A stretch of 64,000 nucleotides of DNA from Tubulanus polymorphus (GCF_964204645.1 NC_134031.1:12464088-12528087), one strand, 5' to 3'. Shown: positions 10 to 62,662, numbered from the stretch's first letter. Notes: generated from the sequence alone by a model not told the origin. Program-made: numbers and translations.

Positions 10-1479
10 TTATTTATTTTTTATTATTTTTTCTTGATATCTTTTTGATATCATATTCACTAACCCAAAAATAATAGCACTTACAACTGTAATTAAAAAT
101 AAAATAATATGTTAAGCAGCAGAGTTAAGAATATTACCTGCAGATTTCAATATAAAACCAACAATTGATGCAATAATTCCTGGTAAAGCTGCAGCAGATT
201 TTTTAGATAGTTCCCATAAATATTTTGCTAATTTCTTTAAACCATCTTTAACTTTATCTTGTATAGAATTATTATCATTCGGGGGTTTATTCGGTTTATT
301 GGGAGTAGGTGTAGATTTCAAAGAATTTGATATTGCTAAACCAATTGTTGTAAATAACATAGTTACAGCTGTTAGAATTGAAAGAATTGTTATTCCTTCT
401 AATTTAAATAATAACTTTATTCTATCTTTTAGTGATATTTCAGAATTTGGTTTAATCAACAAATCTTTAAAAATAACTTTTAATCTATTAATATTATAAT
501 CATATGATTTTAATAATAATTTAATTTCTTCTTTCTGTACTTCTAAATTATCTTTTAAATTATTAATTTCTTTTTCCAATCGTAATTCTTTTTGCCTATA
601 TTCTATTTCATCAATTACTTGATGATCTAAATCAGACTTTAATTGTTCTATTTCTTTATTTCTATCAGTTAATTCTTTTTCTAAAAATCTAATTTTAAAA
701 TCTCTTATACTTTTATTATGTGCAATTTTATCAGCTTCATTTCTTATACTAATAATTTCTCTAATTGCTTTATCAGAAAATATATTTAAATCTTCTAGTT
801 GTTGATCTGTTGCATCAATTAATCCATTCGGTAAAAGCTTTTCAATTGGAACTTTATTTGATTTAAGTTTACTAGTTTTCGAAGTTATATTCTGTTCAGA
901 AGTTGTTTCTGTTTCTGATTTCTTTTTGATTATTTCAAATAATTCATTAATTCTTTGTTTAAATACGTCTATATCATTACCAGTAAATTCTTGTTTTATA
1001 ACATCAGTTAGTACATTACTATTACTAATTCTTTTAATTCTATCTGGATCTAAATTACTCAAAGTTGATTTTGTTAATATTTTATTTTTATTATTTTTAT
1101 AAGTGATATCAATATAATAATCACCTTTCAAATGATAATACCATTTACCATTATCTAAAAATTTTAATTGATCTGCTAAAGGTCTAACGTCTTCATCATT
1201 TATGTTAAGTTTAGAATTTTCAATTATACGTTCTAATTTAGGTATTTAATTTAAATTATCTAAATCATGTTTTACTAAACCTGGGTCTAAATTTTCAGGA
1301 TTTAATTGTGATTCTGCATTTTTAATATAATCAGGCATATTTAAATTATTATTATATTCTGGCTCATTACCGTCATTAAAACTTGTTTCACTAAAATCAT
1401 TATAATCATCATCAATATATCCTTCATTATTATTTTCCATTTCTCCTATTTCATAATCTTCTACACCTTCTAATTCCAT
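10..1479 (-). pseudogene. Coiled-coil protein with hydrophobic/amphipathic C-terminus (conserved Maverick gene upstream of MCP)
   Basis: ORFs 1246..1479 and 112..1131 are in the same frame, split by a TAA. A second TAA at 112-114 replaces the E of AAEHIILFLI seen in copy B. Homologue at 44005..45459. Confidence 0.8.
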
Positions 1480-1496
1480 TTACATAATAAAAAAAA

Positions 1497-2794
1497 TTAA
1501 AATTTAAAATATAATATTCCACCTATAACAATTCCTATACAAGTTAAAGCTAATTTAGCATTTTCATGGGATTTATTATCATCATTTAGTTTAATTATTC
1601 CATGTTGAATATTATCAGTTTTAATATTTTCTGATGTATTATAATCTTTTATTTTAGAATCATTATCCAATTTAATATTCTTAGTTTTAGTTTCTGTTGA
1701 TTGAATATGTTTTTTATTTTTTTCACCTTCCATTAATTTTGGAGCAGTAATAATCTTTTTATTTATATCATTTAATCCAAATGAATTATTTATTGTTGCA
1801 GTTTTAATTAGATTATTATAACCAATTATATTTCCCATCTTTAATACTAAATCATTAGAAATAATTAATAGATTAGGGCCTATACAATAATTTAATCTAA
1901 TATGTGATTTATCTAAATAATTTTGATATCTTACAATGTTTTCTGGAATCGATCTATTTTTATCATTATGAATTGAATCTTCAAATAATACTTTGAATTG
2001 TTTCTGCGCATCAAATGAAGTACTATCATTTCCAACTATTGGTGATCTTGTTTCAACTTGTGCACCTAAAATACAAATTAGATAAGTTCTAATTGATTGA
2101 TTTATTCTTTGTATACCAGGTTTTGTAAAACCTTCACCATTATCTATAATAAAATTATTCCAACCATCATCATTATCGATTTTATAATAAGCTGAAATTC
2201 TATGCATATAATCAATTCTTTTTATTTCATACTCTTCACCGATACCTTGCAATTTACCATGCGCTCTAAAATCGGAATTAATATTTATATTAAATTCATT
2301 ACATATTTTATCAAACTTAGATAGATTAATATTATTATCCAATTCTTTAAAATATTTAGATCCGGGTAAAGGACATTCTAATTCATTTAATATAATTCTA
2401 ATTTGAAAGTATGCATGAAATCTAAATATTGTATGAATGAATTTTAAATCTGAATAAGACAAATTGTTATATAAATTATTCAAGTGATCATTCCAACTTA
2501 TACTACACCCTGTTGTTGCACAATAAACAGCAAAATTTAATTGATTCTGCCAATATTTCATATTAGATTTTATTTTATATATATATTATATTCATCTCGA
2601 GTAAAAGTAACTTCATATGTATTAAATATATTTTCCATTTTAGAAATGAAAAACTTCGTTTCAGTAACATAAATTTCTAAATTAATTAATGAAGGTGAAA
2701 CTACATTTTCATATGTTATAATACTATTAAAATCTATAGGTGGAATTGAATATCTATATGATTTATTATATTGGAAAGCTTTTGGAAACCCCAT
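1497..2794 (-). pseudogene. Conserved ~430-aa Maverick protein (WQNQLNFAVYCATTGC motif, C-terminal TM anchor)
   Basis: The 74-aa and 354-aa ORFs are joined in copy D (...IYKVKSNMKYWQ); here a 2-nt AT slip separates them. C-terminus LALTCIGIVIGGILYFKF is hydrophobic. Confidence 0.8.
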
Positions 2795-2810
2795 TTATAT
2801 AATTAAAAAA

Positions 2811-3245
2811 TTAATAATTTATTAATTCTTTTAATAATTTATCTTGTTCTTCAACTGTTATATTGCCATTTAAACTTGTTATATAATCTAGTGTATTCTT
2901 CAATTTATTAATTTCTTTTATATTAGTTTTAATTTTTTCTTTATTACTTTTTATATTTAATTTTGAACTTTCACCGGTTAATACACTTGATGATAATCCT
3001 AATACGCCAATTGATATAGCTAAAGGTGTTAATGGACTGAATATTGCTAGAAATGTTATTACAGAACTAATTGTGACCGAACCACTAATAATAAAATAAT
3101 ATATAATTTTAGATTTTAAATATTTTTTCTTTTTAACTTTTAAATCATTTTCAAATTCTAATATTTGTTTTTCGAAATATATTTTTAATTTAGTTTTATT
3201 TATATCATGAGGAATAATATCAATATTATCAACTTTATCTTCCAT
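2811..3245 (-). CDS. Two-TM plus coiled-coil membrane protein
   Basis: 144-aa ORF with two hydrophobic segments, TAAATG start, homologues at 25391 and 47227. Confidence 0.8.
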   Translation of the reverse strand: MEDKVDNIDIIPHDINKTKLKIYFEKQILEFENDLKVKKKKYLKSKIIYYFIISGSVTISSVITFLAIFSPLTPLAISIGVLGLSSSVLTGESSKLNIKSNKEKIKTNIKEINKLKNTLDYITSLNGNITVEEQDKLLKELINY

Positions 3246-3264
3246 TTATTTAGAAAAAAAATTA

Positions 3265-3684
3265 CTAATTAGTAAATCTATATGCTACAAATATAACAAT
3301 AACAGTTCCGCCTAAAATCCATATTATTTCATATTTCTGTTCTTTACTTGGGGTATAATAATCTGATATTGTAGGTTTATGTAGATGTAATTTTTCTTTA
3401 TTGGTTACCGCGTTATATAAACTCATTGCATCATCAACTGATTGAAAATCTCTATGTGAAATCTTCTGATCATATAATTCTTTATTGATGTAATCCATAT
3501 AGTTTTGCCTCTTTTCTCTGTATTCTACTGCTGCTTTATTATATTTCTCTAATGCTATGTTATGTCTTTTTTGTTCTTCTAATGAACTATTTTTATCTAT
3601 ATGTCTAAATAAATAACTACCACCAGTAAATGCTAAAGCGTTAACAATTGCTGTTCCTATAATAGTTAGAATTAAAGAAGCCAT
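3265..3684 (-). CDS. Small membrane protein (N- and C-terminal hydrophobic segments, central coiled coil)
   Basis: 139 aa, TAAATG start, intact homologues at 24951 and 47669. Confidence 0.82.
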   Translation of the reverse strand: MASLILTIIGTAIVNALAFTGGSYLFRHIDKNSSLEEQKRHNIALEKYNKAAVEYREKRQNYMDYINKELYDQKISHRDFQSVDDAMSLYNAVTNKEKLHLHKPTISDYYTPSKEQKYEIIWILGGTVIVIFVAYRFTN

Positions 3685-3708
3685 TTATTTAGATAAAAAA
3701 TTATGTAA

Positions 3709-3930
3709 TTATATAGGAGGAATATATTTTTGTTTTTCCAAATAATCAATAGTTAAATTAGATAAAGTAACTGCTAATGTTAATTTTAAAATATCATTTA
3801 TATCAAATCTATCAACATTAACACTTCCCATTTTAAATACTTTTTTTAATACCATTGAATAACCAACAGTTCCAACTGATAGTAATGCTCCATTATATAA
3901 GCCAGTTATTATCCACTTATTATCACTCAT
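3709..3930 (-). CDS. 73-aa hydrophobic protein
   Basis: Identical protein at 24701..24922; split copy at 47693-47770 plus 54866-55008. Confidence 0.8.
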   Translation of the reverse strand: MSDNKWIITGLYNGALLSVGTVGYSMVLKKVFKMGSVNVDRFDINDILKLTLAVTLSNLTIDYLEKQKYIPPI

Positions 3931-4290
3931 TTATTTATCAAAAAAATTACTATCTTCAAAATATTTAGTTGTCTTATTTATGATTAAATCAACATTTATT
4001 TCATTACTACTTTTATGATTATCGTATATTTCAATTATTATTTTTTTAATATCATCGATGATAAAATCTTCATCTAATTCATAAAATCTTAAAGATTCTC
4101 TAATTAAATTAGTAATCTTTTCTACATTTAAAGTTTCTTTATCTATTGTTTTTTCATACTCAAATGTTGTTTCATTAGAAAATGCAATATTTTTGATATG
4201 TATAATTACATCATTAATGTTAAATTTCATTTCTTTCTCGCGTTTAAAATCAAATCCTAAACATATACTCGGTCCAACAGTTATATTCAT
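3931..4290 (-). CDS. 119-aa conserved Maverick protein of unknown function
   Basis: Homologues at 24347 and 55372; its TAA stop abuts the next ATG. Confidence 0.78.
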   Translation of the reverse strand: MNITVGPSICLGFDFKREKEMKFNINDVIIHIKNIAFSNETTFEYEKTIDKETLNVEKITNLIRESLRFYELDEDFIIDDIKKIIIEIYDNHKSSNEINVDLIINKTTKYFEDSNFFDK

Positions 4291-4306
4291 TTATATAATG
4301 AAAAAA

Positions 4307-4367: not shown

Positions 4368-7153
4368 ATCCAGGGGCGTCAAACGTCGCCGTATTCCTTA
4401 TATTGTTTCCTCACCGACTCGTAAATATCGCATGCACTTTGGTGGTACTGGTGTCAATTTTGACAACCTGATATCCGTGGACTGCACCAGTGATACTTCT
4501 GTAGAAAGGCATAGTTTGCCGCGTCCTATTCCGGTCAAAGTTACATCACGCGTTTTCAGGGCGTCACCTTCGAATGCTCGAGGAGTTAGTCAAGATAATC
4601 TTTGTAAGATTCCCCGAGTTTCCTTATATGTAGCTAAGAACTCTCTTCAATTTGGACTTTGGAACGCGCGTTCAGTGTCAAGTAAGATTCCCACAATCTG
4701 TGATTCCATACTTGCCAACAACATAGGTGCTTTGGCTTTAACCGAAACCTGGCTTAAATCCAGAACTGAAAAATCCACAATCAGTGAATTCAAATCGTGT
4801 CTCAGCGGCTATCACTTCATTAGCAATCCTCGTATAGGAAAGACGGGCGGCGGTGTAGGAGTCATTGCACTTAAGTCACTTAATATCAAGGTGATTTCAG
4901 GCGGCAGTTTTAGCACCTTTGAACATTTGCTTGTAAAGATTCGGCACAGAAGCCAGCTCATTAATTTAGTAGTTGTTTATCGTCCACCTGCTCAGACCAC
5001 AAAGACATTTCTTGTTGAAATTTCAACGTTCCTTGAGACTTTTTTGATATCGCCGGGTCGTTTGATAATAGTAAGTGATTTCAATTTTCACGTTGACGAT
5101 ACCGTGCGACGCGATGCCCAACAGTTTCTTGATCTATTACGCAGTTTTGGGTTCGTCCAACATTTACAAGGACCGACCCATCAGAAGGGCCACACCCTAG
5201 ACTTAGTGATCACTCGTGAAACCGATAAATGTGTATCAAATTTTATCGTTGATACGTCATTGCCGTCAGATCATAGTCTTATTGTATTTAATTCGTTTTT
5301 ATCTAAACCGTTTCCGTTGACGGTCGAACGTGTGTCGAGGAACCTCCGAGCGGTGGATAAGAACGTGTTACTGGAAACAGTTCGCAACATATCTTTTGAG
5401 AATTCTGAGACCGGGACTGTTAATTCTTTGGCGAATGACTATGATGCTAAGATGAAGTCAGTTTTGGACTATCTAGCGCCAGAAAAGACTGAAACTTTCA
5501 CCGATAAGCCTCGCGCTCCATGGTATGGACCCAATCTCCAGGCTGCTAGGCGTGTTTTACGTAGCCACGAACGGAAGTGGATCTCATCTAAATTAGAGGT
5601 CGATAAACAGATTTATCATGCCAATCGGATTGAGTACCATAGTTTGTTGCAAGAAGCCTCAAGATCCTATCATCGCGGTCGGATAGCAGACTGTACCGAT
5701 CAGAGAAAGTTATTCACCCTTGTCGATGAATGGACAAGTGATAAGAAGTCTGTAATTTCCGCGCTGCCAGAGCACAGCAATCCCAAAGAACTGGCTAATC
5801 GATTTTCTGATTTTTTTGTTGTGAAAATTGGCAAACTATGTGATTCTTTTATTGATGTACCACTCCCTCGGTTTCCTTTTATAGATCTTGGTCATTCCTT
5901 CAATAGTTTTAGTACGGTTACTGAAAAGTCTCTCAACGACATTATCACTTCAATGACCAATAAGTCATGTTCAATTGATCCGATTCCCACTACTTTTCTA
6001 AAACAATGTTTACCTGAAGTTTTACCAAAGTTAGTCGATATTTTTAACTTGTCCCTCACTGAGGGCACAGTTCCTGACTCTTTCAAAATAGCAACAGTCA
6101 GGCCATTGTTGAAAAAGCCAGGTCTTAATTCAAATGTTTTATGTAACTATCGACCTGTCTCTAATCTACCTTTTATCAGTAAAGCTATAGAGCGGCATGT
6201 ATTGAATGATTTGAGTCAGTATTTATCTGATAATAACCTCTTCTCAACGTTTCGGTCTGCCTATAGGAAGTTCCATAGCACCGAAACGGCAGTTTTAAAA
6301 GTACACAATGATATTTTGTTAGCTCTTGATAATCACGATGAAGTAGTGTTCGTCTTATTAGATCTAACTGCGGCTTTTGACACCATAGATCACGGTATTC
6401 TATTGGTTGAATCGGTATGGAGTGAAAGATGTTCCTTTAGAATGGTTTAGGTCATATTTAGAAAATAGGTATCAGCGTGTTGTGATTGACAGATCGTCAT
6501 CTCAAAATGTTAAACTCATGTGTGGTGTACCTCAGGGGAGTGTACTAGGCCCTACACTTCTCAGTTTATATCTTGCACCAATCGAAGAAATTATTATTAA
6601 ACATAAACTCGACTTAATGTTATATGCCGATGATACCCAGATTTATTTCGTCTGCAAGAGTTGTGCAGCTTCTAAATCAAGAGTTGAGAAGTGTGTTGAC
6701 GAAATAAAAGAATGGTTGAAGTGCAATAGACTTGTTTTTAATGATAGTAAGACAGAGGTTATACATTTTACGTCAAAATTTCGTAAGGGAGACAAGCTAT
6801 CAAGTATTAGAATAGGAGATGACAGTATAGCTACTTGTCAGTCAGTCAGAGATCTTGGCTTTTATTTCGATCATAATTTTACCATGTCTTGTCATATATC
6901 TTACGTCTGTAGATCGATTTCTTACTCCCTGCATCGCATTGGTAAAATACGCAAGTTTTTAGATCGCACTAGCACCGAAAGATTGATTCACGCTTTTCTA
7001 ACTTCCAAATTAGATTACTGTAATAGTCTTCTCTACGGTCTTCCGAATTGTTATATTTCTCGCCTACAAATGCTTCAAAATTCTGCCGCACGCTTAGTCA
7101 CTCTAACTAAGAAGCACGAGCATATCACTCCTATACTGTATGAACTACATTGC
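4368..7153 (+). mobile_element. Non-LTR retrotransposon (L2/CR1 group), truncated at both ends
   Basis: GC jump; APE endonuclease motifs (WNARS, LTETWL, GGGVG, VYRPP, DFN, SDH) and RT motifs (NYRPVSNL, DLTAAFDTIDH, GVPQGSVLGP, YADDTQ). Ends inside HITPILYELH. Confidence 0.95.
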
Positions 7154-7159
7154 AATTAA
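4432..7159 (+). pseudogene. LINE ORF2 (endonuclease-reverse transcriptase), frameshifted near 6407 and 3'-truncated
   Basis: ORFs 4432..6450 and 6407..7159 carry consecutive parts of one EN-RT protein. Confidence 0.92.
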
Positions 7160-7765
7160 TGGAAATCCACAGTAAAATGTACCATCTTCAGTTGATAAAT
7201 CATAAACATAATCTGTTGGGTTATATATTTCAAATAAATCTTTAACTTCTTCAGTTAAATCTTTTTCTGTGCAGCTTAAATTAAAGCAATTTGGTTTAGA
7301 TTTAATCAATCCAATATTCATATTGAAGCCTAATTAATTACATAATATATTTAACCCTGATATAGCAACTTTTCCTTTTTGAGCTAAAGATATTGCTGGA
7401 GAACTCGTTAATTTTTTAGCACCATCTGCTGCGTAGAATCCAATGAAGAACCATTTTCTTAAATTATTTTTTGCATTTAATACATAATCAGGAACTATCT
7501 TCTCTTTTGTTGAAGTATTACTTTTCACTATTGCATGAATATAGAATTCATCATTATATTTTATAGCAAAATCTTTAGGATTATTTACAAGTATTCTATA
7601 AACTGCTGATGATTTCATAACATCCATGATTTTAAATGTTTTATTTGGATAAACTTCTTCACAATATTTCTTTATTCTTTCTAATAATATCAAATCTTGA
7701 TTGCATAAATACCAACAATATTTATTACCCCAAACATATTTATACACACCTGCTGAACCATCACT
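7154..7765 (-). mobile_element. Intein remnant with LAGLIDADG homing endonuclease inside pPolB
   Basis: Block C tail SDGSAG, block E FFIGFYAADG and C-terminal splicing block F DYVYDLSTEDGTFYCGFPLI. One in-frame TAA after ILCN. Confidence 0.88.
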
Positions 7766-10700
7766 AAATCATAAAAACTATTATTCATTAATTTGAAATC
7801 TTTTTTCAAAATCTGTTTTTGATATGGTTCTCTGTTGAGTATTGAAATCTATATATTTTTCTAACCACTTCGATTTATTAAATTCAATATATCTATGTAC
7901 TTTCTTTAATTTCATTCCTTGTTTTAGATAAAATTTTAACATTTTATAATGAACAATATAATTGTATTTATTATTTTGAGTAAGTATTAATTTTTCTGTA
8001 AAAACATGATCTTTCGGTTTTATTTTCTTCTGGTATTCACTTAAATAACTATCATCTACAGTTAAATGTTCTGGGCAATAAGGTAAGTTTCTTGTTTTAA
8101 ACTTTATATTTTCAGGATATTCTAAATCAACTACAAAGAAATTACCAATTGGTGCTTCATCTTTTAAACTCGCAATTGCGCTTTCCCAATCAGTTTTATC
8201 ATCATTTTCAACTTCTGTTAATATAAAATTTTTATATGGTTGAGATTGCATCATTGCCCAACCATATAAATTATTGGCGTCAATATATAATAATTTATAT
8301 TCATCATTTGCTTTAAAATACCTATCTCCCATAACACCACTAATTCCACCTCTAATTGATTTTTCAAATAATAAAACCATGTCTGGTTCTTTTAATAAAT
8401 CTAATTCTACATTTGTGTATTTTAAACCACATTGCCAGGTTAAACCAGGACTTGAATAACAATAACAAGGATCAACATTAAAATTATTTAAATTAACTTC
8501 TCTAAATTTTTCAAATATGTCAGCCAATATCATAACATCTGATTTTAAATATAAATCTACTAATTCACCATGATTTTTCATCTTAAAATGGTTCCAAATA
8601 TTTAATGTTCTATTAAACACTTCATCTTTCACATACTCCTCTTTTAATTGATCATAAAATTGATCTTTTAATAATTATGTTACATTAAAATCATCATGTG
8701 TTTTATAAAATGAATAAGGAATTGCACCTTTATATCTCAATAATTTAAAATCTTGTTCATTTGGATAATAATATTGAGTTATAACAAAATCATTATCAAC
8801 TAAACTTTTTGATAAATTATCTAAGGAACTTGCTAGAAATCTATAAGAATCTAAAAATCTAATGCAACCAAATTGAAATGAAATATAATTTTCAGATGTT
8901 TTAGCTAATAGTTTAAAATCATATTTTCTTACATTTACACCATTCATAGCATTATATTCTTCTATTTCTTGATTAATTGTGCCCAATTTCCTTGATAATT
9001 GTTTTATAAATAGATGGGTATCATAGCCTGATAAATTATGAAATAATATTGGTACGAAATTAACTTTCTTAGCCTGTAAATTACAATCTTCATGAGCAGC
9101 TCCATGATATTTTGAATTTAAATGATCATGATCTCTAACTTTTTTATCAAATGAATAAAAACGTTTTTCACAATAACAACAATGAGTTGCATAATTAAAA
9201 TCAATTTCATCTTCTTTTGTCATAACTATTCTTTTATTTTTGTTTAATAATTTTGCAATATCACTTTCTAATTCAATCATTTTGTCATAAAAATCATTAA
9301 CTACATCTTCACCTCTAAAAGAAATATATTGACTTTCATATAATTCGGGATAATTTGATTTGATGTAAATTCCATAAGCAGCAGCTCTTTGATGAACTTT
9401 TTTAATTGTATTTATAATTGGCGGGTCTTGTGTTGTGTCTTCATTTATTTCATTTCCTTTATCCATTGATTTTAATAATTGCTTTTTGTTATATATTTCT
9501 TTTCTTGATCAGTTAATTCTTTTTTCAACGATTCAAAATCCCCGTAAATTACAAATGGAACAATATTCTTAATTTATGATTAGTAAATTTCAATTTATAA
9601 CCTTTTTCTGTTGGCATTATTAATTTACAAAAATCTTTATTATCACATAATTCTTCATCTTTTAGTAACGCATTCTCAGTTCTAAATTTAGATAAACATT
9701 TTCTACATAGATACATTTTATGACTGTTAAAATCACTTTCTGTTCTAAAGAATAAATCAATTTGTTTTAACCACATATAATGTTCATTTTCATCTTTTTT
9801 GTAATATAGCAAATCTATAGCATTTTCATCATCATAATATTCTGTTAAATATAAAGCTTCCAATGTATAATCTTTGATATTTTCACCTTTTGTCTTTGGT
9901 AATTGCATTAATTCGAATACATTTATTTTTAAATTATTAATTTTTTCTATTTGTGGTATCATTTTTATAGTTACTGGATATTGATCAATTTTATATAATG
10001 TTTCATATTTCCGGTAATTTGTTATTCTAAAACTATGCGTAATATCTTCTGTTGGGTGTAAGCAACTAATAATTGACCATAGAAAACATTTATTATCTTC
10101 ATTTTGAACATTTATTACTGTTTTTGTTGAAAATGGTAATTTAATATAAGATGATGCTTTAATATCCTTTTCTGTTGTAAAGTTTGAATCATTTTTAAAC
10201 ATTGTTTTACTTTTTGATGTTTTATTCCTTTTTGTATTATAAACATTTAAATCTAAAAATATAATTTCATTTAATGATAAACCAGAACCCTTAAATATCT
10301 TTCTTCAATATGACGTTTAAATTCATTAAATATTTTTTCTAACTTCTCTTTTATTTGCGTTTTTTAAATTATTTCTTCAGAGAGTGTTTGAATATAATAA
10401 TCCATTTTCTCTTCTGACTTTAAAAAACTTACTTTCCCAGAGATACTAATTTTTGGATATTCAACATCTGTTATCAAATCTAGTATTTTTTCTATTATTT
10501 CATTAAATTTACTATAATCTTCTATTGTTGTACCTTTAAAAAATCTAAATATAATAGCTGCAGGACCAATTTTACTACGTAATGTTTCTAATATTTCAAT
10601 TGTATCTTTTATTTCTAGTGAATCAATATAATTTCTAACATTTTCCATGTAAGGTTTATTTGAAAAGGATTTAGTTTTTGAAGTTGTTTTTTTTTACTTT

Positions 10701-11028
10701 TTGAGGTTTATCATCGAAATAATCTTTTCCTAAAACATTATTACTCAAATTTTGATGGTGTTTTTGTGATTCGAGATGTCTATTATAATTCCTTTTTACT
10801 ATAAATTCATTACAATCTTCACATTTTATTTCATCCACATTCATATTTTCTAATCGTTCTTTTCTTTCATTGGAATTTTCTGAAGTTTCAAAATCTATAA
10901 CATTTTTTATATGATTTGAAGATTTTTCATGACGCGATTTTTGAGATTTATCAATGTATTTTTTACAATATGGACAATAATATTGATTTTCATTAACATC
11001 AATTTGTTCTGTCTTATTCTCTCCAATT
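7154..11028 (-). pseudogene. pPolB: Protein-primed family B DNA polymerase (copy A), fragmented, intein-containing
   Basis: N-terminal zinc fingers, SSYIKLP/NEDNKCFLWS, ExoII FHNLSGYD, FLDSYRFL, ExoIII YLKSDV, motif A YIDANNLYGWAM, motif B KLMNNSFY. The 3' end is lost at the LINE junction. Confidence 0.93.
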
Positions 11029-11089
11029 TATAAGGAAAAAAAATTACTTGTGGTGATGAGTGGGGATTACTTCCCCTTGTATATAACAA

Positions 11090-11300: not shown

Positions 11301-11316
11301 AGCTGTGATGAGTGGT

Positions 11317-12023: not shown

Positions 12024-13365
12024 CTGAAATCATAGTTCATATCAAGTTTAATATAATTGCTATCGGCAATGTATACTTAAAACATGCTAAGGTGATCTCT
12101 ACTAATGTGATGTATTATTCAAAGTAATCAACAATTTTTTAAATTTTTGAGATCATAATGGATCAAATCAATCAAACACCAGCCTTTATTCAAAAGGTCC
12201 AAACCTGTCAAAATATGGAGGAACAGAAGAGCAGTACGAAAAAAGGTTGAGAAATAATAATAATACTTAGCTTTGGAAAATGCTGCCTAGATATCCACGA
12301 TTTTTATTTAGCAAATTAACCAAATCATCATCCTTCAACTGCGAAACCTCTCTGCAAGAAAACAGAAGAAAATCAAATATATCTTTTGACTAGGGAGATT
12401 TACTAAGTATGGGCCTGCCATTTTGTGATTTTAAACAAGTACTAGATGACCCGGAGGTAGCGACGCGACTTGGGGTGGATTTGGCACCTGAACGTGTCTG
12501 GATCCACGCCACCCATTGCCAGGAAAAAGCGTCTGAACTACCTGTTTTGGTGAGGTCATCCGAAACTAGATGCTCGCTGAGAAAGGACAGGTCTGTCACA
12601 GTGCGTAAGCCTCCCGAGGCCTTGAGCACTGTAAACAGTCTCGAGTTCCAGCCCAGAGAGGACTCGTCCGGTATCTGCTAACATGTTGTAGTAATAGTGT
12701 ACTTGTTCAATTTGTTAACAATCATTTAATCTCAATTCATTTACTGGTGAAGGGAGCACATTTCTCCAATTTTGCTGTGTAATTTTGAGGTTCTGGACGA
12801 TCTCTTCCCATCGACTTGATTTCCCTAATCAGCGAGGATCTTGCTGCCAGAATCATGTTGATTTGAGCCTTGACAGCCAGTAAAATCACACGAGTCACTA
12901 ACCTAGGAACTAGATAATTCTATTCATACAGGGTCCATAGGATGTTCTTAACCCGTCGATAGGTGGCTCAGCCAGATAGAAACTTTCCCGGCTCGGGGGC
13001 CCGACTCCAGCGGGGGATAGGTAAACCCAGTCGGCCGGTCCTGGACCCGTATTTATCAATACACATCAACTCGGCTGCCACCACAGATGACTCGCCAAGA
13101 GCGTGAGCATCCTCCTTGGAGGCGGTATCTGAAGCCATGCACTCAGCCTGTTCCGCGGACTTACGAGGTTTAGGCATGGTGGCGCCATGTTTGCATAAAA
13201 CCTTTTGAATGAACGTGTAAAACGCCGGTGCTGAAAAGTTGAAACTGGTAGCGAACGAGCCCGAAGGCAGTCGGTCAAATGTTAATGGTGAACAGGAAGT
13301 GGTCAATTCGGATGGTAGAATCCAAGGCGACGACTCACTGGATCCCGGATGCGTGATGGGACCTG

Positions 13366-13510
13366 AGTAATAGGGATAATAGGGGTTCAGGCCAAAGGTC
13401 GAAGGGTCGAGCTCATAAAAAATAAATTCTCGCACACTCGAATTTATTTTTTATTTTTTACTCACTCGCCCCTTCAACCTTTAACCTGAACCCCTATTAT
13501 CCCTATTACT
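13366..13510. repeat. 145-bp terminal fold-back
   Basis: Begins AGTAATAGGGATAATAGGGGTTCAGG and ends with its exact reverse complement; imperfect pairing continues inward. Confidence 0.9.
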
Positions 13511-13765
13511 CTTAAAATATTCATATTTAAAAAGTGTGAGTAAAGTTTTAACATAATAATCTAGAAAAATAAGATCAAATATAGATTTCGAATAATAAAA
13601 AATCAATTTTCAATATAAAAAGTGTGAGTAAAGTGTGAGTAAAGTGTAAACATAAAAAATGTGAGAAAAAGTAACGAGTAATTAACGAGTTGTTAGAATT
13701 AAAATCAATTTTTAAACATAAAAAGTGTGAGTAAAGTGTGATTGAAATAATTCATATTTTAAACA

Positions 13766-14470: not shown

Positions 14471-14638
14471 GATTAAGCTGTATGTTTCAAATATATAGTA
14501 GTTAAAGCATGGAGAAATTAGTTAATGAATAACTGTTAGGTAGTAATTTTTAATTGTTATTTGATTTGAAACCTATAAGAGTTTAATATTTCTAAGATAT
14601 TAAATATTTATCAATTTAATAATTTTTTTCTTAAATAA

Positions 14639-14851
14639 ATGTATGATTTCAACATACCAACCGGAAGTAGTGATTTGAAACATTATTTAGTTGCTGGAGG
14701 TTTAATATTGGCCGCATTATACTTTTATTATGAAAATATCAGTAAGGATCTAATGAATGAAAATAATAAATTAAGTAAGAAATTAAATGGAAACAATCAC
14801 AGAAAAAATAACAATAAAAAACTTAATTTAGAAAATGATTTGGAGGATTAA
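14639..14851 (+). CDS. Small single-TM protein
   Basis: T-tract plus TAAATG start; hydrophobic YLVAGGLILAALYFYY. Confidence 0.55.
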   Translation: MYDFNIPTGSSDLKHYLVAGGLILAALYFYYENISKDLMNENNKLSKKLNGNNHRKNNNKKLNLENDLED

Positions 14852-15199: not shown

Positions 15200-15630
15200 A
15201 ATTAAGCAATAGACTGTTAAATTGGCTGAAATACATAAAAATAGATTATATTATAACTATTTCTATATTTAGATTAATAATTTATATTCATAATTTTTAT
15301 AAAAACTAATTTATATATCTATGTACTAGACGTACGAGTAAGAAACCAAGATTCTTGCCAAGAAAGTAAGAATTCTTGGATTCTTACTCGTACCTGTCTT
15401 ACTTAGTTTTATAAAAATGAATAAATTATATGTTTTCACTTAATGAAAGTAAAAGATAGATTATATTTTAACTATTTCTTTACTTAGATTGATAATTTAT
15501 TCATTTTTATATAATCTAAACTAATTTATATATCTAAGTACTAGACGTACGAGTAAGAAAGTAAGAAAGTAAGAATTCTTGGATTCTTGGATTCTTACTC
15601 GTACGTCTAGTACTAAATATCATAAATAGT
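15200..15630. repeat. AT-rich ~220-bp repeats with palindrome TACTAGACGTACGAGTAAGAA...TTCTTACTCGTACGTCTAGTA
   Basis: Two units near 15323 and 15538; same family as 35990-36860 and 41400-41520. Confidence 0.85.
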
Positions 15631-19050: not shown

Positions 19051-19301
19051 CTTAATAATTTCATATAAATGAACATTATTTACATGAATTTCATTTATTT
19101 TAAAATCATTTATATGTTGATTACAAAAGTGTGAGTAAAGTGTGAGAAATAATTCATATTCTAACAGATTTCGAATAAAAATATAAGTAAAATAAATGGA
19201 TAATTAAAAGAATATAGAAGTGTGAGTGAAATAACTCATTTCATGTTATATGTAAGGGAAAAATCCCACTCATCACCACAAGTAATTTTTTTTCCTTATA
19301 A

Positions 19302-23514: not shown

Positions 23515-23583
23515 TTATTTAGGAAAGATTTTATTAAAATTAATTTTTAGTGATGAGCGATAATTTTTTTTATGTTATAAATA

Positions 23584-26273: not shown

Positions 26274-26296
26274 ATAATTGATTTTTTGTTAGATAA

Positions 26297-27544: not shown

Positions 27545-27604
27545 AAATATTAATTAGAAAGTATTCAACATTAGAAGTATAAAGTTAAAATTAACGATAT
27601 ATAA

Positions 27605-32754: not shown

Positions 32755-32760
32755 AATAAG

Positions 32761-34251: not shown

Positions 34252-34257
34252 AATAAG

Positions 34258-35954: not shown

Positions 35955-35984
35955 CTATTTATAATTTGGAATATTATAGAAACT

Positions 35985-41400: not shown

Positions 41401-41522
41401 ATATGAAAACTATTATATATATCTATGTACTAGATGTACGAGTAAGAAAGTAAGATTTCTTGGATTCTTGGATTCTTACTCGTACGTCTAGTATATAGTT
41501 ATATAAATTAGTTTTATAATAA

Positions 41523-42707: not shown

Positions 42708-42739
42708 TTATTATATAAATTTTTATTAAAGTTAAAATT

Positions 42740-43992: not shown

Positions 43993-44004
43993 TTATTTAA
44001 CAAA

Positions 44005-45459
44005 AAAATTAATTATTTATTTTTTATCATGTTTACTAATCCAAAAATAATTGCACTTACAACTGTAATTAAAAATAAAATAATATGTTCAGCAGCAAAG
44101 TTAATAATGTTTCCTGCAGATTTCAATATAAAACCAACAATTGATGCAATAATTCCTGGTTATGCTGCAGCAGATATTTTAGATAGTTCCCATAAATATT
44201 TTGCTAATTTCTTTAAACCATCTTTAACTTTATCTTGTATAGAATTATTATCTGGGGGCTTATCCGGTTTATTGGGAGTAGTAGTAGATTTCAAAGAATT
44301 TGATATAGCTAAACCAATTGTTGTAAATAACATAGTTACAGCTGTTAGAATTGAAAGAATTGTTATTCCTTCTAACTTAGATAATAATCTTATTCTATCT
44401 TTTAGTGATATGTCAGAATTTGGTTTTATCAACAAATCTTTAAAAATAACTTTTAATCTATTAATATTATAATCATATGATTTTAATAATAATTTAATTT
44501 CTTCTTTTTGTAATTCTATGTTATATTCTAAATCATCTTTTTCTTTTTCTAAATACGCATTTCTTTTTTTAAATTCAATTTCTTCAATAACTTTATTATC
44601 TCTATCTAATTTTAGTTGTTCCGATTCTTTTCTTGATTTAAATAATTCATCTTCTAAAGTTCTAATTTTTAAATCTCTTATACTTTTATCATGCGCAATT
44701 TTATCAGATGCAAGTCTTATACTTTCAATTTCTCTAATTGCTTTATCAGAAAATATATCTAAATCTTCTAATTCTTGTTTTGTTGCATCAATTAATCCAT
44801 TCGGTAAAAGTCTTTCAATTGGAACTTTATTTGATTTAAGTTTACTAGTTTTGGAAGTTTTATTCTGTTCAGAAGTTGTTTCTGTTTCTGATTTCTTTTT
44901 GATTATTTCAAATAATTCATTAATTCTTTGTTTAAATACTCTCCTATTTTTATCAATTAATTCTTGTGTTACATCTTCTATTTCATTACTATTTCTTATT
45001 CTCGTAATTCTAGATAGGTCTAAATTAAGCAAAGTTGATTTTGCTAATATTTTTTCTTCTTTTATATAAGAGATGTTAATATAATAATCATCTTTCAATT
45101 TATAATAATATTCACCATCTAAAAGTTTTAAATTTTCTACTAAACGGTCAGCATCTCTATCACTCATATTATACCCAGATCTTTCAAATACAGGTTTGAA
45201 TTTATAAATATATTCATTATATTCTAATCTTTTTTTACTAAATCTGTATTTTCATTTTCAGGAGGTATTTTCGATCTAGTTTTTCTATCATAATCATCTG
45301 TTGATGTGGCTTTAGAACCACAGAATCTGCTAAATTAGAATTATATGCTGATTCATCATCATTATCAATATTATTTTCTACATCATTATAATCATCATCA
45401 ATATATCCCTCATTATTTCCCATACCCCCCAATGGAATATCTTCTCCACCTTCTGCCAT
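44005..45459 (-). pseudogene. Coiled-coil protein with hydrophobic C-terminus
   Basis: Homologue of 10..1479 with a conserved C-half and divergent N-half. Confidence 0.8.
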
Positions 45460-45474
45460 TTACATAATAAAAAA

Positions 45475-55372: not shown

Positions 55373-55388
55373 TTATATAGTGAAAAAA

Positions 55389-56144
55389 TTACTCTCTACA
55401 TCTTATACCTAATTCATATATCACAGGAAAGTTATTCAAATCAATTAAATAACCATTATGATTTCTTATTTCTAATTTAAAATTATTAAATTTAGGAATG
55501 CAAGGTTTAAAATCACATTCTGTTAAATTATAATTTATTTGAGTTCCAAATTGTTTAACATTTTTTAGCGGTAAAATATTTAGTATACTAGAACTACAAA
55601 TTGTTTCTTTAGTTGCTTCGAAAGTTTTTTTAAGCTCGATTAAATTGCAATAAATGCAAAAGTGTGTAAAAGGTATTATATTTGAGCTGCCTTCTGCGTT
55701 TCCAGTAACTGAAAGCGGTTTAATTCCTAACATTTTAGCCAGTGGTTTGTTTACCATAAATTTATGTTGTTCATTAGATATCTTTAATCTTATTTTATTA
55801 GTACTATCAATTTTATTAAATTTAATTTCAAATACAGAAGTGCCCCCAATTTTCAACCGAGCTCTTCTATTAATTTCTTGCGCTAATGATTCTAAATTAT
55901 ATAATCCTGGTTTTAAAAATATATGAAACCATTTATCTTGATTTCTCATATAAATCATAAACCCTCTATGTTCAAAAGTTTTATCTGATATATTATAAAA
56001 AGAATTACATAAACTTATATTAACTAATTTTAAATCTACACAATTCTTAAATTCTCTATCTAATTGTACTAGTAAATTATGAGATTTATAATTTGTAAGT
56101 TTTCTTGAATCTACAAATATTCTGTATTCTTTTAATTCTACCAT
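55389..56144 (-). CDS. Minor capsid protein (penton, single jelly-roll)
   Basis: IFVDSR, KPGLYNL, LAKMLG, IYCNLIE and LEIRNHNGYLIDLNNFPVIYEL, the usual Polinton/PLV penton pattern. Confidence 0.82.
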   Translation of the reverse strand: MVELKEYRIFVDSRKLTNYKSHNLLVQLDREFKNCVDLKLVNISLCNSFYNISDKTFEHRGFMIYMRNQDKWFHIFLKPGLYNLESLAQEINRRARLKIGGTSVFEIKFNKIDSTNKIRLKISNEQHKFMVNKPLAKMLGIKPLSVTGNAEGSSNIIPFTHFCIYCNLIELKKTFEATKETICSSSILNILPLKNVKQFGTQINYNLTECDFKPCIPKFNNFKLEIRNHNGYLIDLNNFPVIYELGIRCRE

Positions 56145-56161
56145 TTATTTTACATATTTTC

Positions 56162-56515
56162 TTATTCGAAATCTATTTCATGGTGCCCTTTTTCATTCTT
56201 ACCTTCGTATACGAAATAGAAATCACCAGAACATAATTCTTCTAAATCTTCACTTGATAATCTATGAAATCTATCTGGTAAATATGTTCTGAATTTATGT
56301 GTATTTCCTTTTAATCCTTCATATTCTAAGTGTATAACAAATTTATCTCCATAGTTATTAGTAACTGTATCAATATTTGTAATTAGATATTTCTTATGGA
56401 TTATTAATTCTTTTAACTTCCTAAATTTATAATCTACTGATTTGACATTTGAAGTATCTTTTATTCTATCTAGAAATAATTTGTTGTTCTCACTGTTTGC
56501 TTGTTTACTCTCCAT
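56162..56515 (-). CDS. Small protein, possibly an OB-fold ssDNA-binding protein
   Basis: 117 aa, TAAATG start, TNNYGDKFVIHL...TYLPDRF pattern, directly downstream of PolB. The fold is inferred. Confidence 0.55.
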   Translation of the reverse strand: MESKQANSENNKLFLDRIKDTSNVKSVDYKFRKLKELIIHKKYLITNIDTVTNNYGDKFVIHLEYEGLKGNTHKFRTYLPDRFHRLSSEDLEELCSGDFYFVYEGKNEKGHHEIDFE

Positions 56516-56544
56516 TTATAATACATATTTTTATTAAAATTTGA

Positions 56545-59122: not shown

Positions 59123-59204
59123 CTTAAAATATTCATATATATATGAATAACATTTAAATCATTGAACTTCTAAAATCAATTTTAATAAAAATTTTAGTAT
59201 TAAA

Positions 59205-59456: not shown

Positions 59457-59532
59457 AAAAGGATGACGTTGATCGAAGAAATGGAAGAGGATTCTAAAAT
59501 ATCAACCAATTTAATAAAAATATATATTTTAA

Positions 59533-60312
59533 ATGGAAAGTACACAAACTATAAATATAAACAATAATGGTGTAATAAATATATGCTATAAGAAATGTAA
59601 TAAGTGTGAATTGAATAAATCATTAACAGAATTTCATAATCATAAAAAAACTAAAGATGGTAAAAGTTGTTATTGCAAAACTTGTTATAAACTATATAAT
59701 AAACAATATCAAGCAAATAATCCAAATTATTCAACACAATATTATATGGATAATATTGAAAAATTCAAAGTTAGAAATAAACAATGGAGAGAAAATCACT
59801 CAGATTATATAACAGAATATATGACAGAATGGAGGGATAATAATAGAGAATATTATAAAGCGTATCAAAATAATTATCAAAATGAAAAATATCAAACAGA
59901 TTTTAATTACAAATTGAAAAAATGTTTAAGATCTAAAGTATCAAAATTATTCAGTAAAGAAAACCACTCAGTTACACTAACACATTTATTGGATTGTTCA
60001 GATAAATTTTTTAAATCATGGATAATATATCAATTCGATGATAAAATGAATATAAATAATTATGGCAATTATTTTCAAATAGACCATGTTTTACCAGTTT
60101 CGAAATTTAACATGAATGATGAATACAATAAAAAGTTAATTTGGAATTGGAAGAATTTAAGACCTCTTGAAAAGAAGGAAAATATGATTAAACATGACAA
60201 ACTAGATTTACAATTATATTTAGAACAGTTAATAAAAGTAAAGAAATTCATTGAATTATGGAACAATAATCCAAATAATGAACAATATGTTGGGTCTTTA
60301 ATGAGTGGTTAA
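59533..60312 (+). CDS. Zinc-finger HNH endonuclease
   Basis: CNKC..CKTC and QIDHVLPVS...NWKNLRPLEKKENMIK. Confidence 0.85.
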   Translation: MESTQTININNNGVINICYKKCNKCELNKSLTEFHNHKKTKDGKSCYCKTCYKLYNKQYQANNPNYSTQYYMDNIEKFKVRNKQWRENHSDYITEYMTEWRDNNREYYKAYQNNYQNEKYQTDFNYKLKKCLRSKVSKLFSKENHSVTLTHLLDCSDKFFKSWIIYQFDDKMNINNYGNYFQIDHVLPVSKFNMNDEYNKKLIWNWKNLRPLEKKENMIKHDKLDLQLYLEQLIKVKKFIELWNNNPNNEQYVGSLMSG

Positions 60313-60563
60313 AGAATAATATATCTCAAATAAAATATATTAAGAAAACAATAACTTCAACTAGCTAATCAATTCTATTATATATTTTTAATATTTTCTT
60401 TTCAAAAGAGAATACTTTATATTTTGAATAGATTCAAATAGAAATTCTTTAAATTCAAATAGCTAGTATCAGTAGTCAATACTAGAGTTCTTTAACTTTA
60501 ACTATCTAGTATCATTTGAAGAATACTTATAATATTTTTTTTTGCTTTTTTTCTCTAATATAA

Positions 60564-61166
60564 ATGTCAAAGAAATCTAATAAGAATAGTATTGATATTG
60601 AAAAAACATTAGATGATTTGGGTATAAGTGATAATAAAGATACAGTTGCAACTAATTGTGCTCAAGTTAATAACAATATAGATTATGAATACTATTTATA
60701 TTGTAAACATCATCTTGAATTATTAATTGCTGGCGGGAAATCTAAGGACTTCTTAGGAAAAATAATAACTTTTCAAGAACTAGACTCTATGAAACCCGAT
60801 AAAGTAATAAAATATTTTAAGATTTATGAAGAGGCAAGATTAGCTAGAATAAATGATTCTATTTCAGATGGTATTGTCAAATGTTATTCTAAGTTATGTA
60901 ACCAGTTAATACCAATTGATGATGAAAATAAATTATATAATGATTTGAAAAATGACTATTTAGTTATGACTGAATTACAAAAATGGGTTGGATATGCTTC
61001 ATTCCAATTAGGATCGGTTATGACGTTGATTTCTACTGGTGTCATAACATTTTCGAACATCAAACCTATGGAATATAAATCAGGTAAGAACGAAACAAAT
61101 ATACTACAACAAAACGTCGAAACAGAAAATGAATCAGAACAAAAATTAACTAAAATAAATGAGTGA
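60564..61166 (+). CDS. Conserved 200-aa Maverick protein
   Basis: Homologue of 31785..32393. Confidence 0.82.
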   Translation: MSKKSNKNSIDIEKTLDDLGISDNKDTVATNCAQVNNNIDYEYYLYCKHHLELLIAGGKSKDFLGKIITFQELDSMKPDKVIKYFKIYEEARLARINDSISDGIVKCYSKLCNQLIPIDDENKLYNDLKNDYLVMTELQKWVGYASFQLGSVMTLISTGVITFSNIKPMEYKSGKNETNILQQNVETENESEQKLTKINE

Positions 61167-61570
61167 TGGAGTTAAGAAAAAGGCTAGATCCGAGAAACAA
61201 ATTAAATGGGCAAGAGAATTAGGTAAAAGATCATCAGAATTAAAAAAAAGCTAAGAAAAAGAAATTAACTGATATAAATGAATCACAGACTTTATCTGAT
61301 GATGCCGTACGGCACCCACACGGTAGTATTGATTCAAATAATAATCCATCTAATTCTTCTAATGCTGGAAGTAATTATAAATTATATATTACAATTGGAT
61401 TAGTAACAGTTATTATATTATCCGGTGTAATATATAAATCAAAATTCAAATCTGATGATAAAGATGATTCCAATGATCGGAAACTTAGTTATCCGTGTAC
61501 AGACAATAAACCTATTATACCAGAAAATAAATCAAATGAAACTAAATCTAAATTATTATTAATGGATTAA
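61159..61570 (+). pseudogene. Basic single-TM protein, frameshifted in an A-run
   Basis: Homology to the 32386 gene; extra A near 61245. Confidence 0.68.
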
Positions 61571-61573
61571 AAT

Positions 61574-62662
61574 ATGATGAAAAAAGAACAATATTTGAGA
61601 GAGTTATATTATAACCCAGAAAGTGAAGTATCATATTCTAACGTTTCAGAATTATGGAATAAAATTAAATCTGATAAAGAAAAAATAAAATATAGTGAAT
61701 TAAAATCATGGTTACAAAATCAACCCACATATCAAATTCATAAAAAGATGGATAAAAAATATTTAACAAGAAAAGTAATGGTTTCATATATTGACCAACA
61801 ATGGCAAGCTGATTTAATTGATATGAAAAACTTAGAAGAATATAACAAAGGATATTTTTGGATACTAAATGTTATAGATATATTCAGTAGATACGCATGG
61901 AGTATCCCGATTAAAAATAAAACCGGTATAGAAGTTACAAATTCTTTCAAATTAATATTTAAAGAAGCTATCCCAGATAAAATACAATTTGATGAAGGTA
62001 AAGAATTTTATAACAAACATTTTAAAAAACTATTAACTGATAACGATGTAGAATATTTTTCAACACATTCAGATAAAAAAGCATCTGTTATAGAAAGATT
62101 TAATAAAACATTGAAAACTAGAATGTGGAAATATTTCACCGCTAATGAAACATATAAATATATCGATGTGTTAGATGATTTAGTTAAAGGTTATAATAAT
62201 TCTAAACATAGTTCTATAAATATGAAACCTATACAAGCTAGAAAAGAAGAAAATTCAGAAATAGTTTGGAATAATTTATATGGAGCATTTGTTACACATG
62301 ATTTTGGAGAACCTAAATTTAAAATAGGACAACATGTTAGAATTTCTAAATATCGAAAAACATTTTATAAAGGTTATACCCCTAATTTTACAGAAGAAAT
62401 ATTTAAAATTAAAAAGATAATATTAACTAAACCATTTGTTTATAAATTGTTTGATTTAAAAGATGAAGAAATATTAGGTTATTTTTATGAACAAGAATTA
62501 TCATTAGTACCAAATCCAGATGAAATAGAATACAAAATAGAAAAGGTATTGAAAACAAAAACTCTTAAAGGAAAAAAGTATTCTTTGGTGAAATATAAAG
62601 GATATGATGATAAATTTAATGAATGGATTTTATCTAGTAAAATTAAAAGAATAAATGAATAA
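61574..62662 (+). CDS. RVE (DDE) integrase with C-terminal chromodomain, intact
   Basis: Catalytic D (WQADLID), D (IQFDEG) and E (VIERFNKTLK); chromodomain YKIEKVL...YSLVKYKGY...NEWI. Confidence 0.95.
   Translation: MMKKEQYLRELYYNPESEVSYSNVSELWNKIKSDKEKIKYSELKSWLQNQPTYQIHKKMDKKYLTRKVMVSYIDQQWQADLIDMKNLEEYNKGYFWILNVIDIFSRYAWSIPIKNKTGIEVTNSFKLIFKEAIPDKIQFDEGKEFYNKHFKKLLTDNDVEYFSTHSDKKASVIERFNKTLKTRMWKYFTANETYKYIDVLDDLVKGYNNSKHSSINMKPIQARKEENSEIVWNNLYGAFVTHDFGEPKFKIGQHVRISKYRKTFYKGYTPNFTEEIFKIKKIILTKPFVYKLFDLKDEEILGYFYEQELSLVPNPDEIEYKIEKVLKTKTLKGKKYSLVKYKGYDDKFNEWILSSKIKRINE

Follow-up and report, generated by a model that had tools for sequence, protein, structure and literature searches.

The window, the whole 64,000-nucleotide stretch of DNA that was analysed, carries several degraded and partial copies of one low-GC element family, which self-alignment shows to be 76–99% identical (Table 1). 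The pPolB, rve integrase, double jelly-roll MCP and A32-like ATPase of Maverick/Polinton elements (Polintoviricetes) are all present. Both copies of the protein-primed DNA polymerase B are broken, with a Pfam match to PF03175 below the curated cut-off, while the integrase yields an rve match (E 8e-9) together with a chromodomain and the packaging ATPase is 80–83% identical to those of relatives. The MCP of one relative, P0002, which shares 72% identity with the ORF in the window, was modelled (pLDDT 85) as a double jelly-roll; the structures closest to it are the MCPs of iridovirus, PBCV-1, mavirus and Sputnik, with E values to 9e-16. These genes and the many genomic copies are shared with animal Mavericks, most group 1 members of which also have an adenain-type cysteine protease; no Pfam match to a protease was found among 34 ORFs of the window and 19 of relatives, where the longest element extends to 11.5 kb and none is complete. 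Terminal inverted repeats and target-site duplications were also sought in the window and no termini were assigned, the copies being fragmented and interrupted by other repeats. LINE and satellite DNA also occur in the window, and the MCP has a bivalve homolog. As judged from sequence, the host is likely to be an animal. The 442-aa family gave a confident model (pLDDT 88) with no match in BFVD, in a PDB Foldseek search or in a wide VIA search (best Z 3.8), an absence that is not proof of a new fold, and Atlas matches of the 200-aa protein reached at most 0.80 and gave no lead.

Table 1. Features of the window. Signal, T-N8-TAAATG; T-run and A-run denote its upstream class.
Feature	Position	Strand	Remarks
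Signal, T-run, start of conserved 442-aa-family gene, broken here	2792–2806	-	Copies 25860, 46776
Signal, T-run, 144-aa hydrophobic gene	3243–3257	-	Copies 25391, 47227
Signal, T-run, 139-aa hydrophobic gene	3682–3696	-	Copies 24951, 47669, 50163
Signal, 73-aa hydrophobic gene	3928–3942	-	TAA is also the stop of the upstream gene; copies 24701, 55008
Signal, T-run, 119-aa gene	4288–4302	-	Copies 24347, 55372
Fragmented protein-primed DNA polymerase B region	7145–11088	-	DNA_pol_B_2 E 2e-5 (below cut-off), self-alignment; second copy 19302–22187 (+)
Signal, T-run, 70-aa gene	14627–14641	+	
Signal, T-run, zinc-finger ORF heading fragmented polymerase region	19290–19304	+	
Signal, A-run, C2H2 zinc-finger gene	23512–23526	-	
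TAAATG without T at -12, second integrase	27593–27607	+	Divergent and broken
Signal, 84-aa gene	32374–32388	+	In last codons of preceding gene; copies 33882, 61159
About four 233-bp units, internal palindrome in each	35980–36863	.	Just past ATPase stop
Signal, A-run, broken gene after MCP	42705–42719	-	
MCP gene	42740–43992	-	Two ORFs in this copy (broken)
Signal, T-run, MCP start	43990–44004	-	Second copy 26285–26299 (+)
Signal, T-run, acidic/coiled-coil gene	45457–45471	-	Copy 1479
Signal, A-run, start of gene 55389–56144	56142–56156	-	Gene presumably penton-like
Signal, A-run, 117-aa gene	56513–56527	-	
Signal, A-run, endonuclease VII/HNH-like gene 59533–60312	59521–59535	+	Second gene at 29818
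Signal, T-run, 200-aa gene	60552–60566	+	Copies 31785, 33281
rve integrase with chromodomain, full length	61574–62662	+	Start without TAAATG in window copies; TAAATG in relative L003, none in L005
Signal, A-run, ATPase start	62643–62657	+	Within integrase 3' end; copy 35331–35345
A32-like packaging ATPase, full length	62655–63269	+	Pox_A32 E 1.8e-12
Inverted arrays of 9-bp units	63312–63637	.	ATPase to convergent gene

The genes are densely packed in co-directional blocks, and the element DNA is about 77% AT. The initial annotation had listed 30 genes whose start codon lies within TAAATG, and a position check found TAA directly before ATG, on the strand given, at all 30. It had also named the integrases starting at 34258 and 61574 as exceptions, correctly so, as neither is preceded by TAA; none of the three copies of this type A integrase in the window carries the motif. 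The 30 sites represent about 17 gene families. When one start is counted per family, TAAATG occurs at 18 of 22 families, which were assigned by hand, about 13 of them backed by N-terminal homology to intact relatives. Its presence at nearly every Maverick gene, as had been claimed, stands out from the background (binomial p ~8e-19 for the family count), since TAA precedes only 97 of 1601 other ATGs in element DNA (6.1%). The composition-matched null that had been suggested was run on shuffled element DNA and gave TAAATG at 259 of 3732 first-ATG-after-stop starts (6.9%). The companion control, with internal in-frame ATGs, proved unworkable and returned 0 in every locus, because a TAA in that position would itself end the reading frame.

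Twelve metagenomic relatives, with GC contents of 0.20–0.44 and MCPs 52–83% identical to that of relative L001, carry TAAATG at 51 of 59 starts (28/32 and 23/27 ORF starts), and in L001 the motif is found on 13 of 15 ORFs. These relatives bear on a further explanation, that AT richness or the choice of ORF starts produced the motif as a side effect, for which the base composition and the picking of starts in the initial annotation might both speak. The low background and the starts backed by N-terminal homology argue against it, as do three relatives at 36–44% GC (L006–L008) which keep the motif, where only 4/179, 6/121 and 7/83 ATGs follow TAA, and a sister lineage at 29–31% GC with TAAATG at 0 of 13 starts. 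This explanation is refuted by these controls and retains practically no probability. The signal is also absent from an outgroup element (L075). Conservation of the motif across a divergent clade at 20–44% GC is supported by the loci compared. In an MCP tree that included no virophage MCP, a branch (support 83/91, not starred) sets the MCPs that bear TAAATG apart from the others, and the MCP is 39–41% identical to a widespread animal Maverick type, including a bivalve protein. Viral contigs searched with the ATPase, the MCP and two MCP alignments gave no related loci, and genome contigs gave none with query A1 and two outgroup contigs with query A2.

The full signal is longer than TAAATG alone and reads T-N8-TAAATG, with a single T at -12. 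This T is present at 29 of the 30 cited window starts and at 65 of 69 starts overall, compared with 30 of 89 non-start TAAATG sequences in the same DNA (Fisher p 7e-16); at the N9 position a T occurs at 51/69 starts. The core WATAAATG is found in 58 of the 69 clade starts. A T-run had been described as usually lying just upstream, and this holds for 20 of the cited starts, whereas the other 10 have an A-run, the two sets being without overlap; the near-invariant feature is the T at -12. Class membership varies per gene among relatives, the MCP showing a T-run in 8/11. A splice-acceptor reading was dropped, there being no AG before the ATG.

TAA before the start is an in-frame stop by construction, and AATAAATG occurs at 32 of 69 starts in tightly packed co-directional genes. 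The signal could, accordingly, act on translation or RNA processing, with the stop insulating genes on read-through RNAs or with AATAAA as the poly(A) signal of the upstream gene. We give this little credence. Among 51 starts, the triplet at -3 to -1 is TAA in 44 and never TAG or TGA, and the TAA ends the previous gene at only 1/51 relative starts and one window start (3930), which agrees with the earlier statement that it is mostly not the stop of the gene before. Moreover, five divergent gene pairs, with 19–30 bp between their ATGs, carry TAAATG on both sides and have no co-directional gene upstream, while at four relative starts the signal is retained within upstream coding sequence. The fixed T at -12 and the strict 8-base spacer suit a DNA promoter better.

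The results support a uniform signal that overlaps the start of nearly every gene, also of those for replication; in the literature searched, we found no such signal in print for Mavericks. The accounts available of vaccinia late promoters describe a TAAAT(G) that spans the start codon and, among the T's upstream of it, a single conserved T; those of intermediate promoters give an A-rich upstream region (PMC11980589), and the viral polymerase is described as reading TAAA at -1 to +3 directly (PMC12917281). The elements share with vaccinia the TAAATG over the start codon, the conserved upstream T, T-rich and A-rich upstream variants and very short intergenic gaps, but the published late consensus is T-N9-TAAATG (PMC11423596, Table 1), with a spacer one base longer than the N8 found here. 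Equating the A-run class with vaccinia intermediate promoters was dropped on spacing, the A-run being nearer than in the consensus TAAAAA-N14-TAAA of the same table. For virophages, a helper late promoter is reported ahead of all Mavirus genes and 12 Sputnik genes, a pattern from which both were inferred to use the late promoter of the helper (PMC6723459). These Lavidaviridae resemble the present elements in placing a single helper-type late promoter ahead of most or all of their genes, those for replication among them, and Mavirus, which integrates, likewise encodes a pPolB and an rve integrase (PMC6723459, PMC10328495). The present elements depart from them in an MCP that falls among those of animal Mavericks, in a probable animal host and in a motif unlike the mimivirus and CroV late motifs; a protease was not detected, and their helper dependence is a prediction.

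Our preferred reading, with a probability of about 0.6, is that T-N8-TAAATG would serve, as in virophages, as a late promoter used by the polymerase of a Nucleocytoviricota helper; we infer from its sequence features that it probably has a promoter role. The lineage would then be a virophage-like, helper-dependent virus which also integrates in the host genome, and the signal a late-type, post-replicative promoter at which a co-infecting Nucleocytoviricota virus would supply the RNA polymerase. Transcription would initiate on the A-run of TAAAT beside the ATG, slippage probably adding a non-templated 5' poly(A) leader, and the T at -12 would form the core element together with the T- or A-run upstream, at a distance of roughly one helical turn. 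On appearance of the helper late factors, all genes, polymerase included, would be turned on together, after which the element would rely on its own pPolB for replication and on its own MCP and ATPase for packaging. The proposal of a helper polymerase in the initial annotation is thus favoured by a fixed signal on nearly all genes, clade-wide and on both sides of short divergent gaps, and by the lack of a recognised polymerase or transcription factor; its poxvirus component is considered below. RNA polymerase, capping enzyme, TBP and TFIIB gave no Pfam or PHROG match in the proteins scanned, which come from incomplete elements and of which most small ones have no assigned family.

A divergent transcription factor of the element's own may be present among these small proteins, and host RNA polymerase II could then be redirected by an element-encoded TBP/TFIIB-like factor, the virus being autonomous and nuclear. 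TATAAATG, which occurs at 26 of 69 starts, contains a TATA-like hexamer and would fit such a scheme, as would the many element proteins of unassigned family. However, a TATA box acts 25–30 bases upstream of the transcription start, and one abutting the ATG would start RNA inside the gene. Furthermore, with the motif on nearly all genes, as on the L001 ORFs, almost none is left to supply the factor first, and TBP/TFIIB matches are absent from the Pfam scan. We regard redirected host transcription as improbable.

If a helper polymerase is indeed used, the start contexts of large viruses offer some guide to its source. Other large-virus loci also begin genes in TAAATG: poxvirus loci do so at 147/314 (chordopox-like) and 29/69 (insect-pox-like) starts, and those loci which we take, from gene content and genome length, to be invertebrate iridovirus-like (L063–L074) at 55/131. 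The WATAAATG core is present in 26/29 insect-pox-like and 45/147 chordopox-like TAAATG starts, and by comparison with the clade value the insect-poxvirus-like loci are the best match to the core. The T at -12 is not strict in the sampled virus groups (chordopox-like 73/147, insect-pox-like 19/29, iridovirus-like 26/55), although these sets mix promoter classes, and the groups overlap in how well their profiles correlate with that of the clade (insect-pox-like 0.48, chordopox-like 0.42, iridovirus-like 0.36). Iridovirus-like loci carry AATAAATG at 51/55 TAAATG starts and give the weakest upstream profile match (0.19); for IIV-6, the account in PMC5923455 describes an AAAAT motif and not TAAATG at starts. 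The poxvirus-type late promoter of the initial annotation therefore survives in its TAAATG over the start codon, but a poxvirus identity of the helper is not secured because TAAATG is equally common in iridovirus-like loci and the conserved T lies one base closer than in the vaccinia consensus. Given a helper, a poxvirus-lineage virus would have somewhat less than an even chance, another or an unknown lineage is a possible but less favoured source, and an iridovirus-like virus is unlikely.

Yeast virus-like elements are described as having poxvirus-related polymerases and promoters and 5' poly(A) leaders (PMC12722222), and a comparable non-NCLDV cytoplasmic partner, for instance a virus-like element or a larger linear plasmid that encodes a polymerase related to those of poxviruses, might provide the enzyme. 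This is a distant prospect, as none was seen in the window or loci and the elements, unlike yeast plasmids, have capsid genes and an integrase. A hunt for the presumed Nucleocytoviricota helper by DNA pattern yielded 38 loci, of which only one, a 3-ORF locus, had a share of TAAATG starts like that of the clade. The divergent-pair pattern yielded 92 loci (300-base flanks only), and both frames are open in 22 of them; their origin is mixed and large-virus-like, and none was identified as a helper. One sequencing run presumed to be RNA gave a single 45-base partial match, which carries no weight either way, and homologs of the dNK of L001 (27–38% identical) were generic or without names and gave no pointer to a helper.

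The papers searched contain no report of typical animal Mavericks borrowing a helper polymerase. Polinton-like viruses associated with entomopoxviruses are likewise Polinton-related and proposed poxvirus hyperparasites in animals, and two of them have divergent mavpol2-clade MCPs (Barth et al. 2024, PMC11296320). They come from occlusion bodies and in two of them no known integration gene was detected, whereas an rve integrase and many genomic copies are present here; the evidence there is co-occurrence and here a promoter-like signal, the main text of that paper having 0 occurrences of 'promoter', 'TAAAT' and 'motif'. A more far-reaching and doubtful extension is that this clade of integrase-bearing animal Mavericks represents virophages that have become endogenous and whose helper is an invertebrate virus of the poxvirus lineage yet to be described, with a two-class (T-run/A-run) promoter copy on every gene, that the other motifs of sister clades arose from helper switches, and that the genomic copies constitute an infection-triggered antiviral reserve. 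If true, the motif would be a sequence tag predicting the helper virus of any Maverick.

A late-promoter-like signal on every gene would provide a concrete reason for silence in healthy tissue, and it suggests where to look, namely in the RNA of animals with an infection by a large cytoplasmic DNA virus, with the T-N8-TAAATG spacing as a search key for the presumed helper. Start-context motifs may also sort Maverick lineages by transcription strategy, given that the sister lineage is without this one.

The genes of the Maverick element carry a genuine start signal, which runs through the whole clade and has more structure than the initial annotation gave it. All 30 starts listed in the initial annotation lie in TAAATG, and the two integrases named as exceptions do not start in it. 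With one start taken per hand-assigned family, TAAATG occurs in 18 of 22 families; the remaining four are the type A integrase, a 228-aa ORF whose start is uncertain and two TAAAATG genes. As background, TAAATG is found at 97 of 1601 other ATGs in the element DNA and, when that DNA is shuffled, at 259 of 3732 starts. The control first envisaged, internal in-frame ATGs, is void because a TAA ahead of an in-frame ATG is a stop codon. The upstream T-tract that was claimed is present as a T-run at 20 of the 30 starts and is not universal, the other 10 showing an A-run. A T at -12 occurs at 29 of the 30, and T-N8-TAAATG describes the signal best.

Relatives were sought among metagenomic loci by MCP alignment, which retrieved 24 (L001-L024). 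L020-L024, whose matches are weak and broken, were excluded, and so were L002, L012 and L014, each nearly a copy of another locus. TAAATG is found at 28 of 32 ORF starts in a close set (L001, L003-L005) and at 23 of 27 in a far set (L006-L011, L013, L017) whose MCPs are 52-59% identical to that of L001, and contigs of 36-44% GC are among the TAAATG-bearing relatives. When window families and relatives are combined, T stands at -12 in 65 of 69 TAAATG starts versus 30 of 89 non-start TAAATG in the element DNA of the window (p 7e-16), and A stands at -18 in 53 of the 69. The TAA doubles as the stop of the previous gene at 1 of 51 relative starts, which upholds the view that it is mostly not such a stop, and lies within the previous gene at four. 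Conservation of the T-run or A-run class for a given gene is only partial: 8 of 11 relatives have a T-run at the MCP, and 3 of 4 have an A-run at the ATPase. The MCP tree places the 12 TAAATG rows on one side of a branch whose support, 83/91, is not starred. A sister lineage (L015, L016, L018 and L019; MCP about 40-47%) has TAAATG at 0 of 13 starts. By eye, and among few starts, TATAG or TATA-like words lie just 5' of the sister-lineage starts; a TATATA late motif is described for asfarvirus-like viruses (PMC11788076, partial text).

Virus loci were put through the same pipeline as the element; of 37 chordopox-like loci, 17 remained once near-copies and those with at least 36% GC had been dropped. 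The chordopox, insect-pox and iridovirus labels are presumed from gene content and genome length; the metagenomic contig L117 is pox-like by Pfam. TAAATG occurs at 147 of 314 starts in the chordopox-like loci, 29 of 69 in three insect-pox-like loci, 12 of 39 in two metagenomic poxvirus-like loci and 55 of 131 in iridovirus-like loci (8 of 12 used). The core WATAAATG is present at 58 of the 69 starts in the clade; the virus loci have it at 26 of 29 (insect-pox-like), 45 of 147 (chordopox-like) and 53 of 55 (iridovirus-like) TAAATG starts, 51 of the last 53 reading AATAAATG. T at -12 is seen in 19 of 29, 73 of 147 and 26 of 55 insect-pox-like, chordopox-like and iridovirus-like starts, respectively, and is strict in none of these sampled sets. 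Profile correlations with the clade are 0.48, 0.42 and 0.36 in the same order, with overlapping intervals, and 0.39, 0.43 and 0.19 for the upstream part only. Given these counts and correlations, the supposed poxvirus-type signature is not pox-specific in its TAAATG, and its nearest match leans towards poxviruses. TAAATG at iridovirus gene starts is not mentioned in the available text of one review (PMC5923455). Two metagenomic contigs, L088 and L117 (93 kb and 78 kb, respectively), come from poxvirus-like viruses that are divergent, and L117 carries D13-like, I7-like and VLTF3-like genes.

Vaccinia late promoters place TAAAT(G) over the start codon with a conserved upstream T, and the intermediate promoters are A-rich upstream (PMC11980589, PMC5294985, partial texts); TAAA at -1 to +3 is read by the poxviral polymerase (PMC12917281, partial text). 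Against the tabulated consensus sequences, T-N9-TAAATG for late and TAAAAA-N14-TAAA for intermediate promoters (PMC11423596, Table 1), the element spacer is one base shorter than the late one and the signal does not fit the intermediate one.

A start of transcription overlapping the start codon, the build of poxvirus post-replicative genes, would fit, since one signal serves nearly all genes and divergent gaps are too short for a promoter plus a 5' leader; five divergent pairs lie 19-30 bp apart with TAAATG on both sides. That the signal acts in translation or processing seems improbable. For transcription, neither Pfam, in 34 window and 19 relative ORFs, nor PHROGs, in 22 proteins, recognised an RNA polymerase, capping enzyme, TBP or TFIIB. 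An element-encoded factor directing host polymerase II is unlikely, TBP and TFIIB being without a match in that Pfam search. The simplest source of the machinery would be a co-infecting large DNA virus, as has been inferred for Mavirus and Sputnik (PMC6723459, partial text), and we assign this reading a probability of about 0.6; a polymerase from a non-NCLDV partner is very unlikely. Supply by a large DNA virus would make this a new form of the virophage-type arrangement, in a Maverick whose host is probably an animal. The antiviral role that the initial annotation suggested is hypothetical, and the copies in the window are broken. Promoter sharing is already known for protist virophages. Polinton-like viruses are present in entomopoxvirus occlusion bodies (PMC11296320), a paper whose main text, as available in part, leaves promoters unmentioned. 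No publication of a T-N8-TAAATG-type motif in Mavericks was found in the literature searched, where subscription papers are thinly covered, and "promoter" is absent from the available text of recent preprints dealing with the diversity of PLVs and endogenous dsDNA viruses.

In the window, low-GC blocks (about 21-25% GC) are interleaved with DNA of about 38% GC. The blocks represent incomplete copies of a single element family, at 76-99% identity to one another, with genes for an rve-chromo integrase, an A32-like ATPase, an endonuclease VII/HNH-like protein and, in fragments, a protein-primed polymerase B. The capsid family has a double jelly-roll fold, based on a model of the relative P0002, which matches capsids of iridovirus, PBCV-1, mavirus and Sputnik; neither the MCP nor the polymerase has an intact copy in the window. 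Raw DNA reads carrying the same species label (1.93 Gb) covered the integrase-ATPase bins about 560-680-fold, as against 27-37-fold for the two lowest bins, and most of them were 90-99% alike, which shows the family to be multi-copy and diverse. The host is likely an animal.

Coordinates of features in the window and in related metagenomic loci
Feature	Sequence	Position	Remark
LINE reverse transcriptase	window	4432-7159	within ~38% GC DNA
31-bp satellite	window		within ~38% GC DNA
Integrase and ATPase	window	61574-63269	full length
Integrase-ATPase subtypes	window	27605-29183 vs 34408-35802 and 61721-63117	two coexisting, ~76% identical
Recent tandem duplication	window	31445-34436	1496 bp, 99.4% identical, inside one copy; repeats 200-aa gene, 84-aa gene, integrase start
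Nested inverted repeat	window	13364-13512	junction of host-like and element DNA
LAGLIDADG-like segment	window	7334-7627 (-), 21359-21652 (+)	polymerase region; motif by eye; copies 98% identical, flanks ~91%
Palindrome or inverted repeat 3' of ATPase stop	window	35980-36863, 63312-63637
Same	L001	9096-9340
Same	L002	3092-3177
Same	L003	3720-3837
Same	L005	3163-3275
Palindromes of similar kind	window	15265-15620, 41402-41500
442-aa Maverick protein	L001	2996-4324	conserved family
442-aa Maverick protein	window	1497-2794 (-)	broken
Deoxynucleoside kinase	L001	10340-10981 (-)	start T-N8-TAAATG

The post-ATPase palindromes of the window and four relatives are unrelated in sequence and mostly lie where two converging gene blocks meet; they may be terminators, read-through barriers or origins. 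The LAGLIDADG-like segment, possibly an intein or homing endonuclease, has no Pfam or PHROG match. The 442-aa family numbers 1372 representatives with E no higher than 0.001, and its confident model has no structural match in BFVD, PDB Foldseek or a wide structure search. Three close homologs of the L001 deoxynucleoside kinase (60-67%) occur on short contigs.
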